Source: a virus (lineage: Duplodnaviria > Caudoviricetes). From it: DNA of 59,128 nucleotides. Shown piece by piece: positions 1,864 through 39,922 of this stretch; the stretch's first letter is position 1; every line of letters begins with the position of its first letter. The notes below the pieces were generated by a model. That model did not search any database. It was not told where the DNA came from and saw only the letters and a program-made list of their open reading frames with translations. The stretch lies in the IMG/VR virus record IMGVR_UViG_3300048554_000481, positions 1 to 59,128 of that record. One strand, 5' to 3'. The position numbers and the translations under genes were made by a program.

Positions 1864-2431
1864 CGTAATTAACTAATTGAGCCCAGTTGTCTACAACTTT
1901 AACTCTAGCATCGTCAAAATAAGCGTTATGTTGATGCCTTAGCATTATAGCGTTTAATCCGAGATCAGCGCCAAGCTGTGCATTTTCAGGCTTGTCCTCG
2001 ATCCAATACAAATTACTATCTTTGTAAGGTAACAAAGATTGGTCCTTGTCTGCACCCGTATCGATACATTCCACAAACTCAAAAGTACTAGTAGGAAACA
2101 AGTTTGCTAAATTCATTTCTCGCATTTTCTTAGCATAAACATCTTCACTTAAACTGGTAACAGCACCAAACGTATAACCTTTAGCACTAAGTTGTTCCAT
2201 GCCATATACTGCATCTTTGTGTGGACCTAAAAAACCAATCCAAGCACTTTCGTTAAACTCTCTGATTAGTTCTTTAACTTTGGGTTTTTTCATTCCAAAC
2301 CGTTGAGCCATTTCATAACCAAATTCATTTGGATCAGGTTTAAATCCTTTTGTTCCCATCCATTCAATGAATTTGCTTTCCCAATCAAGGAGCACGCCAT
2401 CACAGTCTGTTAGTATTATATTCTTATTCAT
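1856..2431 (-). CDS. HAD-superfamily nucleotidase-like protein
   Basis: ILTDCDGVLLDW motif I and WIEDKPEN motif. Confidence 0.8.
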   Translation of the reverse strand: MNKNIILTDCDGVLLDWESKFIEWMGTKGFKPDPNEFGYEMAQRFGMKKPKVKELIREFNESAWIGFLGPHKDAVYGMEQLSAKGYTFGAVTSLSEDVYAKKMREMNLANLFPTSTFEFVECIDTGADKDQSLLPYKDSNLYWIEDKPENAQLGADLGLNAIMLRHQHNAYFDDARVKVVDNWAQLVNYVN

Positions 2432-2454
2432 AGTTTACTTTCTTTTCTTAACTT

Positions 2455-2491
2455 ATACTAGTACTATACTATAAGATGTCTTACTTGTCAA
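2455..2491 (-). promoter_or_regulatory. Early promoter (TTGACA) with AAGACATCTT spacer palindrome
   Basis: Member of the repeated promoter family; palindrome at 2473-2482. Confidence 0.75.
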
Positions 2492-33213: not shown

Positions 33214-33238
33214 AACACTTCTCCCTTTCGGTTAAAGT

Positions 33239-33284
33239 GCGTTCCTTCGCTAGTGCTACTTCCGTCCCTTACGGGATGAACGAT
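33239..33284 (-). ncRNA. Glutamine riboswitch (glnA RNA motif)
   Basis: AUCGUUCAUCCC-GUAA-GGGACGGAAGUAGC-ACUA-GCGAAGGAACGC fits the glnA consensus; TATAAATA at 33296-33303. Confidence 0.85.
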
Positions 33285-33766: not shown

Positions 33767-34293
33767 GGTTATGTATTTATGGCTAAATATCGCAATAGAT
33801 AAGTACACATATAACAGTCAAGTACAGAAAGTGCTGACGTCAAACTCACAAGGAGAACGACATGTCCAAAGAAGATAACACTGGTAAAATGGAAGTAGCA
33901 GTAAGAATATTAGGCAACGAGTTAGTTGCACTAAAAATGGTAGTAGACGATTTTAAGATAAAATGGTTAATTTATGGTGTAGTAACTATTGTGGCACTAG
34001 GTTGGGCCGCTAGTAGTTTTGGACCAGCATTATTTGATATGGTAGGAACAGGAACCAATGGGTAAGAAAAAATCAAGAGCAACTCAAACAAGTAAAGGTG
34101 AAGTTGGATCACCTATGAAAACTAAATTAAGATCTAGCGATGAAGGCTATGCTTCACAACGTATGATGAATCAGCTGAACGCATTTAACAAGGGAAAACG
34201 TGTTATGGTAACTATTAAGAATCCAAACGGAGCAGAAACTAATAAACCATATATTCGTGTACCTGCTAAGGATGTATGGAAAAGTAGTAGGAG

Positions 34294-37308: not shown

Positions 37309-37752
37309 CTATTCATGCTCTCCGCCATTGCCTCTGCCATTGCGACTTTGGAAGGCGGCAAACACATGTGGCTTACGTTTGGCTGTTTCAAATGTTGCTA
37401 CAGTAATTACAATGGCGGCAATCAACATAACGTGAGCCATTGCACTAATAGCAAATACAGTCCAACTGCCAACTAGCATAGCGAATGTGATACACCACAT
37501 CCATGCTAGCACTTGCATAAGCAAGTGTCTTACTTGTAAGTCCGGAATGTTTTTAAGTGGACTAACATCGCTGTTCATAACACTGTTCCAGCTGTTTACT
37601 ACAAATGTTCTCATTGGTGCGTATCCTTTTTCAAATATTACTCTAAGTGGGTAGTGTGCATCAGCATCATCACGAAATTCGATTGCGTCATTTACGTCAT
37701 CAAACAACTTAGATACTTTGTGCGTTTTAAAGAAAGCAGTTACTCTGTACAT
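37309..37752 (-). CDS. Conserved membrane hypothetical protein
   Basis: PLKNIPDLQVRHLLMQVLAWMWC..GGEHE. Confidence 0.6.
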   Translation of the reverse strand: MYRVTAFFKTHKVSKLFDDVNDAIEFRDDADAHYPLRVIFEKGYAPMRTFVVNSWNSVMNSDVSPLKNIPDLQVRHLLMQVLAWMWCITFAMLVGSWTVFAISAMAHVMLIAAIVITVATFETAKRKPHVFAAFQSRNGRGNGGEHE

Positions 37753-37780
37753 ATTCTATCCCTTAGTTTACAATTAAAAA

Positions 37781-38133
37781 CGCAACTATTCTGTTGCCAG
37801 GTCAGTTGCCAACCCCGGAAACCTAATTAGGCTGCCATTGCCATTTCTGGCGCATAATTGTCATTTGCAATTATAGTTTTTGATCATTTTCGGAATCACC
37901 CGGCAAACTCCACTCAATTTTCATATCTGTCGATCCTAGTTCAGCCCCATCAAAAGCACACTGTATATTTTCAGCCACACGTTTATTTCTTGTTATAATC
38001 AGGATTTGTTGTTTTTCCCTAATGTATACCAAATGTCTAACTTGTGCCAACTGCCTCTCAATGTGTTTATGGTGGAGCTGTGGGGTACTGCCCCCCAGTC
38101 CAGTCTACTTCCACGTTGCTTCAACGTTTACAA
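37781..38133 (-). ncRNA. ssrA: Circularly permuted two-piece tmRNA, alphaproteobacterial type
   Basis: Acceptor piece has T-arm UGGGG-GGCAGUA-CCCCA and ends CAGCUCCACCA at 38070. Coding piece starts GGGGCUGAACUAGGAUCGAC at 37948. G3.U70 pair present. Tag ANDNYAPEMAMAA-stop at 37868-37827. Confidence 0.93.
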
Positions 38134-38136
38134 GTA

Positions 38137-38167
38137 TATTTATATACTATGTTTTAGGTATTGTCAA
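38137..38167 (-). promoter_or_regulatory. Overlapping sigma70-type and T4 late-type promoters for tmRNA
   Basis: TTGACA at 38167-38162 with an AT-rich -10 region; perfect TATAAATA at 38144-38137. Confidence 0.7.
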
Positions 38168-38406
38168 GTCTCAATGGCATCTTTTAATACACATTTATAT
38201 TCAACGGTATCCCATTTGCCATCTGGTGGTATTAGTTGGTATATTGGAAGCATGTCATGACATTCTTTCTTAGTATCAAACCACTGCACATCTTGTGTTA
38301 AACAAGATCCGTTCAAACATACTGTTAGCAATATATGCCATATTACTTCCATTAGTTACGACCCATGTGTTTAGGGCCAACGTCTCTTGCTATCCAGTCT
38401 AGTAGT

Positions 38407-39847: not shown

Positions 39848-39922
39848 TGGCACCGGTTGGAGGAATCGAACCCCCGCCTTCAGTTTTGGAGACTGCCGTG
39901 CTACCACTAACACCAAACCGAT
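39848..39922 (-). tRNA. trnW: tRNA-Trp (CCA)
   Basis: Cloverleaf: ATCGGTT/AACCGGT acceptor, CTCCAAA anticodon loop, GGGGG-TTCGATT-CCTCC T-arm, encoded CCA. Confidence 0.92.

Follow-up and report, generated by a model that had tools for sequence, protein, structure and literature searches.

A two-piece tmRNA gene with an optional insert

The DNA that we analysed, here called the window, is a stretch of 59,128 nt from viral record IMGVR_UViG_3300048554_000481 (Caudoviricetes). It carries a two-piece (permuted) transfer-messenger RNA (tmRNA) gene, and the intervening segment (IVS) between the two pieces contains a 59-codon open reading frame (ORF). We found that small genes nested in the IVS recur among related phages. 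By sequence comparison these nested IVS genes are well supported, and they are undescribed as far as literature searches reach; full-text searches returned no report of a protein-coding ORF in a tmRNA IVS. The window frame is the least certain example of the nested class, but it shows the layout.

The gene is on the minus strand, as are all of its parts described below. It matches two Rfam models, alpha_tmRNA (RF01849; 38178-37779, 128.6 bits against a threshold of 50, model positions 1-355) and tmRNA_permuted (RF04321; 38131-37827, 115.3 bits against a threshold of 47, model positions 1-213). Hence, the gene is a two-piece alpha-type tmRNA, full-length and above the curated thresholds. The order is permuted, since the T-arm, the acceptor 3' strand and the CCA all lie 5' of G1, the first nucleotide of the coding piece. 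The acceptor piece (38070-38131; RF04321 alignment) consists of a P2 strand, the T-arm, CAGCUCC and ACCA, and terminates in CAGCUCCACCA at 38070. The coding piece (37779-37948; Rfam) opens with GGGGCUGAACUAGGAUCGAC, with G1 at 37948, and extends to a terminator-like hairpin, whose stem (37797-37782) is followed by a T run at the 3' side of the coding piece. The two pieces form a 7-bp acceptor stem, GGGGCUG with CAGCUCC and then ACCA, in which G3 is opposite U. The tag reading frame (37827-37868; sequence and Rfam) has the resume codon GCA (37868-37866), GCC and the stop UAA (37829-37827); it encodes ANDNYAPEMAMAA, which ends in the hydrophobic residues AA before the stop. ARAGORN reported no tmRNA at 37779-38178 of the window.

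The IVS, which would be cut from the precursor, is 121 nt long (37949-38069; sequence reading and Rfam). It is closed by a predicted stem with CACAUUG as its 5' arm (38059-38065) and CAGUGUG as its 3' arm (37957-37963), found in both the minimum-energy and the consensus folds; in the former, IVS positions 5-11 pair with 107-113. The CCA end, G1, the IVS length and the closing stem are all where an earlier reading of the sequence (the original prediction) had placed them.

Most of the IVS is an optional insert of about 98 nt (37962-38059; contig comparison, BLAST and folds), which is predicted to form an imperfect rod-like hairpin. In contigs from DNA run X13, only 5-16 other letters separate 37962 from 38060, and the closest tmRNAs, with 80-85% identity in the mature parts, have unrelated IVSs of 30, 53, 113, 150 and 203 nt. 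BLAST located the insert once in the window and otherwise only in the tmRNA IVSs of the same record (L001) and of three related contigs. A multicopy mobile element was ruled out, since the insert is single-copy and confined to tmRNA IVSs. The original prediction had named free variation of homologous segments in length and frame as the outcome that would speak against it. The IVSs of the closest tmRNAs differ in length and are unrelated in content, whereas the four DNA sequences of the window's own family all keep 121 nt, the frame and the UUG.

Nested genes in the intervening segments of phage tmRNAs

Two scans of IMG/VR used the 5' motif that is conserved in the coding piece, and loci reached via neighbouring genes were added; acceptor pieces were located by requiring the 7-bp acceptor complement, NCCA and a T-arm. 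All survey figures in this text refer to the matches listed. There were at least 241 loci with both pieces and at least 11 with the coding piece only, which gave at least 187 unique IVSs. With the window included, the 188 unique IVSs have a median length of 79 nt, and 80 of them are 90 nt or longer. Among these 80 long IVSs, 56 have at least 73% of their length taken up by a sense ORF with its start inside the IVS; for antisense ORFs the count is 17/80. In 42/80, at most 5 of 100 shuffles match the ORF coverage, and in 18/80 none does. The median G+C is 0.33 for the ORF-bearing IVSs and 0.43 for the rest.

Sixty IVSs have an ORF coverage of at least 0.70, and they group into 10 multi-member families and 20 singletons. 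These counts retain a few probably accidental ORFs (L036, L019, L118, L225 and L162/L181), in which shuffles do equally well or which are G+C-rich. The start is AUG in 45/60, and a Shine-Dalgarno (SD)-like motif is present 3-14 nt upstream in 37/60, often as UAAGGAG right after the CCA. In 15/15 representative loci, full-length Rfam tmRNA matches span the ORF.

Ratios of nonsynonymous to synonymous divergence (dN/dS) were computed on IVS-only codons, and variable sites are given for codon positions 1/2/3. We found dN/dS of 0.09-0.31 with 25/11/45 variable sites for a family of 62-aa proteins, 0.07-0.42 with 37/31/47 for the WSICAD family (n=10), 0.04-0.26 with 4/7/16 for the GNPYK family, 0.10-0.24 with 10/11/25 for the EYICINNYS family, and 0.16-0.38 with 4/6/12 for the family of Methylophilales phage Melnitz, which also has an in-frame 24-nt insertion. 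In the two largest of these genuine nested families, the proportion of differing synonymous sites (pS) is broadly similar to that of the neighbouring genes. Several nested families are thus under clear protein-level selection (dN/dS 0.04-0.42).

Three nested families have free-standing homologues within the window, and two of these homologues are the genes that flank the tmRNA. Directly upstream is a gene for a 62-aa Cys-rich small protein (38164-38352, minus strand; ORF list and homologues), which is homologous to nested ORFs with an E value of 3e-25. Of 25 loci with the 62-aa gene, 15 have it within the IVS and one (L123) has it 5' of the acceptor piece, an arrangement also seen in the window and in Melnitz; in the other nine, no tmRNA was detected. 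The order of the 62-aa gene and the tmRNA pieces has thus been reshuffled. Directly downstream of the tmRNA is a gene for a 147-aa membrane protein (37309-37752, minus strand; ORF list and homologues), and the 499-nt IVS of L048 holds a 120-aa homologue of it (2123-2482, minus strand; 50% identity, E 1e-38). The third is a 67-aa gene with a hydrophobic C-terminal half (33862-34062, plus strand), a distant homologue of the nested family of L053/L175 (28% identity over 40 aa, pairwise E 8e-8). We therefore read the IVS as a probable cassette site in these marine phages, often with a small protein gene.

The 62-aa Cys-rich family (MEVIWHILLTVC...) is represented, besides the window, at loci L056, L125, L127, L130-L133, L135-L138 and L143-L147. 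Judged by eye, many of the nested peptides are short and strongly hydrophobic (L077/L191, L047, the L057 family, L053/L175, L217, L266 and L071), with the look of single-pass or multi-pass membrane proteins. Separately, several of the G+C-richer, ORF-free IVSs (L017, L026/L034, L036, L066, L089 and L118) carry a T-arm-like GGTTCRANTCC. A tRNA inside these G+C-richer IVSs was considered and rejected, since ARAGORN found none in 10 loci and the tRNA-Arg of L089 overlaps the 3' end of the tmRNA. These motifs could act as tRNA-like processing signals or could be what remains of tRNAs.

Comparison with known tmRNAs

Two-piece (circularly permuted) tmRNAs were reportedly found in Alphaproteobacteria, for example in Caulobacter, by Keiler, Shapiro and Williams in 2000. 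The window gene resembles the alphaproteobacterial type in its order of acceptor piece, IVS and coding piece, its closing stem, its encoded CCA and a tag that starts with ANDN, as well as in an IVS that would be excised from a single precursor. The two differ in the spacer. The same motif scan of bacterial genomes listed 120 loci; both pieces were located in 103, which yielded 101 unique IVSs. These cellular alphaproteobacterial IVSs are short, with a median of 30 nt and a single one (1/101) of 90 nt or longer, whereas the window has 121 nt with an optional insert and an open frame, in a phage. Since cellular IVSs are nearly all shorter than 90 nt, long ORF-filled IVSs are a phage feature in these samples. 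The sole cellular IVS of at least 90 nt (L336, a contig of a Hyphomicrobiales metagenome-assembled genome) has 132 nt and a G+C of 0.45; a UUG frame covers 85% of it, and it has no SD-like motif.

The nearest cultured relatives are four isolates of phage Melnitz, for which a two-piece ssrA with a glutamine riboswitch downstream has been described (Buchholz et al. 2022, PMC9004378). In the accessible part of that paper, the word 'intervening' occurs 0 times and nothing is said of the intervening segment; the Melnitz record (MZ577095) annotates SsrA only, with no coding sequence inside the tmRNA. Melnitz shares with the window a phage alpha-type two-piece tmRNA in a related myophage and a syntenic upstream 62-aa gene. 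It also shares an IVS ORF that starts at position 20, is in the same frame relative to G1 and reads across G1. It differs in having GGAG, 6 nt and then AUG, a 142-nt IVS, the low dN/dS given above and a stop at +39.

Other passengers of tmRNA genes are on record. They include group I introns in the T-loop, some with homing-endonuclease genes, and, within the IVS, a tRNA-Ala gene ('unique feature') or a repeat element, according to the accessible part of a 2025 tmRNA database paper (PMC11915505), in which no protein-coding ORF in an IVS is mentioned and 'ORF' occurs 0 times. Like the window insert, these passengers are extra genetic material inside the gene that is removed from the mature RNA; unlike it, those covered there are self-splicing introns, a tRNA or a repeat element.

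Small ORFs on the transcripts of structured RNAs are familiar from dual-function RNAs (SgrS/SgrT, RNAIII/hld) and from mitochondrial tRNA punctuation, and tRNA-processing enzymes could set the ends of a small message. The nested ORFs differ from those of dual-function RNAs in that the ORF, as in the window, is in a spacer that is discarded when a ribosome-rescue RNA matures, with a stop that is often beyond the RNase P site.

The spacer of two-piece tmRNAs, treated so far as a short discard, is in marine phages long, highly variable and usually ORF-filled, and its nested genes are overlooked by current annotation, as the Melnitz record with SsrA alone illustrates. Phage tmRNAs may themselves be under-annotated through long or ORF-bearing IVSs. 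As a separate observation, ARAGORN does report permuted tmRNAs with other IVSs, yet it misses that of the window.

The 59-codon frame of the window

The window frame (37871-38050; ORF list) starts with UUG at 38050-38048, which are IVS positions 20-22, and stops with UAA at 37873-37871, after which UU and the resume codon GCA follow. Codons 1-34 are in the IVS and codons 35-59 in the mature coding piece (DGAELGST...), so the frame covers 0.84 of the IVS from position 20 onwards. An SD-like GAGAGG (38054-38059; read from the sequence) precedes the start. The GAGAGG-cag-UUG arrangement, the 59-codon frame and its UAA 2 nt before the resume codon are present exactly as first described, and the 59-aa peptide matches the one quoted in the original prediction.

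The UAA belongs to the alpha-tmRNA consensus AUAAUUGCAAACGAC in the Rfam alignment and is therefore not a specially placed stop. Its position 2 nt before the resume codon is incidental, frame 0 being simply without a conserved stop: the ORFs of other families stop at -4, +10, +27 or +39, and one variant of the window family (P0005) reads beyond the UAA. Relative to G1, the stop of the window frame is at +75, beyond the RNase P site.

In layout, the window frame agrees with the 'frame-0' class of nested ORFs, of which Melnitz is the example: it opens right behind the 5' arm of the closing stem and continues across G1. Its UUG at IVS 20-22 is placed like the AUG of Melnitz and of L256, and the ORFs of L177, L009 and L053 start at position 19. 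By our own count, the 22-nt leader of the window equals that of Melnitz at 16/22 positions; among the shared letters is the GAG at 38059-38057, which corresponds to that of the Melnitz GGAG. The G+C of the window IVS (0.34) is near the median of ORF-bearing IVSs and unlike that of ORF-free ones. Homology with the Melnitz and L177 families is claimed for layout and leader only, not for the peptides; peptide homology was dropped, since 0.03-0.95 of shuffles score as well.

The window family comprises four DNA sequences, namely the window, L123 (= L148), L149 and L150, and the gene-call peptides P0002, P0004, P0006 and P0007, with P0005 as a partial one. In searches for further DNA relatives, viral contigs scanned with the peptide yielded two loci and metagenomes one; a conserved 18-nt core used as query matched eight times, in two contigs already known and six unrelated ones. 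The acceptor piece has 0/62 differences from the window in L123 and L150 and 6/62 in L149. In the closing stem, L150 has a G>A change on one side that leaves the pairing intact, and L149 has one broken C-G pair. We found that the IVS is exactly 121 nt, frame 0 is open and the UUG is kept in 4/4 DNA sequences. The frame is also kept in P0002, P0004, P0006 and P0007 and is open in all eight known variants. P0004 and P0006 start with a literal M, and the window's UUG is written L in the same collection. This retention is weak evidence for coding.

A number of results weigh against translation of this frame. Of 100 dinucleotide shuffles of the window IVS, 15 contain an ORF with a coverage of 84% or more, and equal coverage is reached in 7-9/100 shuffles of the IVSs of the three relatives; hence, the window sequence alone proves nothing, and the case depends on the relatives. 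The start is UUG in all four DNA sequences, P0007 has K at the aligned start position, and the protein-database matches are derived from gene calls and so favour open frames. The SD-like motif is weak, read either as GAGG at a 3-nt spacing or as GAG at 6 nt, a weakness already conceded when the frame was proposed; GAGAGG is present in 3/4 DNA sequences, its AGG being lost in L149 (GAGAAAC). The window frame thus lacks an AUG start with an SD at normal spacing.

The substitution pattern shows no clear protein-coding signature. Variable sites among the four DNA sequences are distributed 8/6/8 over the codon positions, with no third-position excess, and the dN/dS values of the six pairs are 1.19, 0.60, 0.64, 0.26, 0.68 and 0.36. 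Parsimony by hand gives 8 synonymous and 16 nonsynonymous changes, which is not significantly off neutral. The pS of the frame is 0.09-0.34, compared with 0.36-0.76 in neighbouring genes, so that 'synonymous' sites in the frame exceed those of the neighbours in conservation by a factor of 1.5-6.

Searches for relatives of the peptide were equally negative. No homologue of the window family was found outside tmRNA IVSs by protein word search or by hidden Markov model (HMM) search. The word-based search with the window peptide returned five IVS copies and nothing else. The HMM search of the 34-aa IVS part, a check suggested with the original prediction, returned two more IVS copies and two repeat proteins, which we regard as spurious since the matches span 14 residues only; it gave no free-standing homologue. 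Pfam and PHROGs have 0 families for the window ORF, as well as 0 for the two neighbouring genes and for seven nested ORFs. Peptide similarity between the window and Melnitz families is non-significant by Smith-Waterman alignment, as 0.03-0.43 of shuffles equal it.

Of what had first been proposed, then, an ORF in the excised segment is real and common in relatives, while the coding signature of the window's own family is absent or weak (8/6/8, dN/dS 0.26-1.19). The predicted conservation extends to length, frame and UUG in 4/4 and does not include the SD-like motif of L149 or a synonymous excess. In layout, conservation and composition the window frame appears to fit the nested class, without a coding signature.

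The insert appears not to be neutral junk, given its low divergence. The nonsynonymous divergence of the IVS is 0.06-0.14, compared with a pS of 0.36-0.76 in neighbouring genes, and identity between the window and L149 is 85% for the IVS, against 73% for the coding piece. The window-family sequence is probably constrained at the nucleotide level, in an RNA-like manner at all codon positions. Recent exchange could also explain the low divergence. The divergence of the cassette is mosaic: L123 and L150 differ at 1/78 positions in the 5' part of the coding piece and at 14/121 in the IVS, and the window and L150 have a downstream-gene pS of 0.088, yet 13/121 IVS differences. Such a pattern points to recombination in the tmRNA gene and its surroundings.

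These features bear on an alternative in which the insert is non-coding, either a structured rod that extends the closing stem or a hitchhiking cassette, to be discarded or kept as a small RNA, with an incidental frame; the insert may then be the remnant of a former nested gene. We regard this as a substantial possibility, somewhat short of even. An ORF at chance level, flat substitutions (dN/dS about 0.3-1.2), conservation of all codon positions well below the neighbours' synonymous rate, the loss of the AGG in L149 and homologues restricted to the IVS would all be expected of it. A long IVS need not hold an ORF, since the sense-ORF coverage is below 0.73 in 24/80 of the long phage IVSs. Moreover, L162/L181, a G+C-richer IVS with an accidental-looking ORF, likewise has a pS of 0.00 versus 0.54.

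Folding also favours this alternative to a degree. The window IVS folds as a rod with a z-score of -1.83, and 9/200 shuffles are as stable. The consensus fold of the four sequences has 30 pairs, with one compensatory change, four one-sided changes that keep the pair and one broken pair. The compensatory change, from A-U to C-G in L149, is in a stem to which the first base of the UUG also belongs, and joins the base before the UUG with a 'synonymous' GCU>GCG change. Variable sites gather in the apical and internal loops of the rod-like hairpin. The compensatory pair and this clustering also count against translation.

However, folding fails to tell the classes apart. The median z-score is -1.04 for ORF-bearing IVSs (n=56) and -0.17 for ORF-free ones (n=24), with -0.02 for L123 of the window family, and folding energy was rejected as a discriminator between coding and non-coding IVSs. 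The covariation amounts to one pair among four sequences. Structure also leaves unexplained the start-codon position that is shared with the Melnitz class, and a non-coding insert does not account for the literal M starts of P0004 and P0006. The frame is open in 8/8 variants, the composition is A+T-rich as in the coding class, and dN/dS is below 1 in 5/6 pairs. Our preferred reading, at about even odds, is that the window frame is a translated nested mini-ORF under weak selection for its peptide and a second constraint on the RNA.

Nested frames and tmRNA maturation

The conserved letters of the tmRNA provide stops in two frames, UGA in AUGAU|G1 (-4) and UAG at +10 in GAAnUAGGAUCGAC; frame 0 reads DG(A/G)E(L/I)GST and continues to a chance stop. 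Among the 60 ORF-bearing IVSs in the listed matches, the ORF stops inside the IVS in 32, at +10 in 15 and further on in 13 (16, 10 and 4 families, respectively). The stop is therefore beyond the RNase P site in 28/60 IVSs and 14/30 families. The ORF enters the 3' arm of the closing stem in 58/60, and the start codon overlaps the predicted 5' arm in 41/60, with arm limits that come from duplexfold and are approximate. Translation and formation of the closing stem would exclude each other. With the ORF running into the 3' arm in 58/60 and a stop past the RNase P site in 28/60, translation and maturation would have to interfere. Since a stop beyond G1 is separated from its frame by the cut, RNase P cleavage would leave a stop-less message. 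The stop-less excised piece of the original prediction therefore holds on paper as geometry, while the position of the UAA that it mentioned is incidental.

Several RNA-library contigs bear on processing. The four sequencing runs examined are assembled contigs, which carry no expression level and no translation information. One contig of an oligo-dT RNA library is identical to the window over 37905-37948 and is extended beyond it by 21 adapter-like letters, which we take to be a template-switch oligo. This is a hint of a processed RNA 5' end at G1. Other RNA-library contigs, which span the IVS and acceptor piece (X17, 37962-38167) or cross G1 (X20, 37790-37975), could stem from precursor RNA or from carried-over DNA.

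The acceptor piece is closely preceded by a promoter-like TTGACA (38167-38162) with a 17-nt spacer and TATAAA (38144-38139), spanning 38139-38167 on the minus strand and read from the sequence. A consensus promoter scan, which demands T at hexamer position 6, lists at this place only a weaker overlapping TTGAGA-17-CATAGT. In the scheme that we propose, the acceptor piece, IVS and coding piece would be transcribed as one precursor from an early promoter. Ribosomes would gain access to the IVS only in the course of transcription, when the 3' arm is still to be made and the closing stem is open. The RNase P cut at G1 and trimming at the CCA would then release the IVS. Cleavage would separate the window frame from its stop, so that only uncut precursor could yield the full 59-aa product and the excised IVS would be a stop-less message.

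Phage two-piece tmRNA genes could thus act as expression cassettes, in which maturation makes the nested message stop-less in about half of the families, the product is tagged for degradation by the very tmRNA that held it, and ribosomes on the nested ORF keep the closing stem open and so delay maturation. That this is so, and that the window frame takes part, we consider rather unlikely at present. Such a coupling of a protein product to an RNA that rescues ribosomes can be tested directly in phage Melnitz on OM43 strain H5P1.

It is very improbable that the coding piece is its own transcription unit, driven by an internal promoter (TTGGCA, an 18-nt spacer and TACATT; 38050-38021): the site has 9/12 consensus matches, TTGGCA is kept in all four relatives and the -10 of L150 is TATGAT, but 9/12 sites are common (8 in the region versus 3.7 expected from shuffles), the -10 degrades to TACCTT in L123 and TACGAT in L149, relatives with a short IVS have no room for a promoter, and an RNA-library contig (X17), which may be DNA carry-over, runs from the acceptor piece through the IVS.

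Neighbouring features

A glutamine riboswitch aptamer is at 33236-33284 (minus strand; 57.3 bits), 4.5 kb downstream of the window tmRNA. In Melnitz (L122, about 1690-1740) and in L077 (1019-1072), this riboswitch directly adjoins the tmRNA 3' end. Hence, the linkage of tmRNA and riboswitch is not fixed in this phage group. A gene for tRNA-Trp (CCA anticodon) is at 39848-39922 (minus strand), 1.7 kb upstream of the tmRNA.

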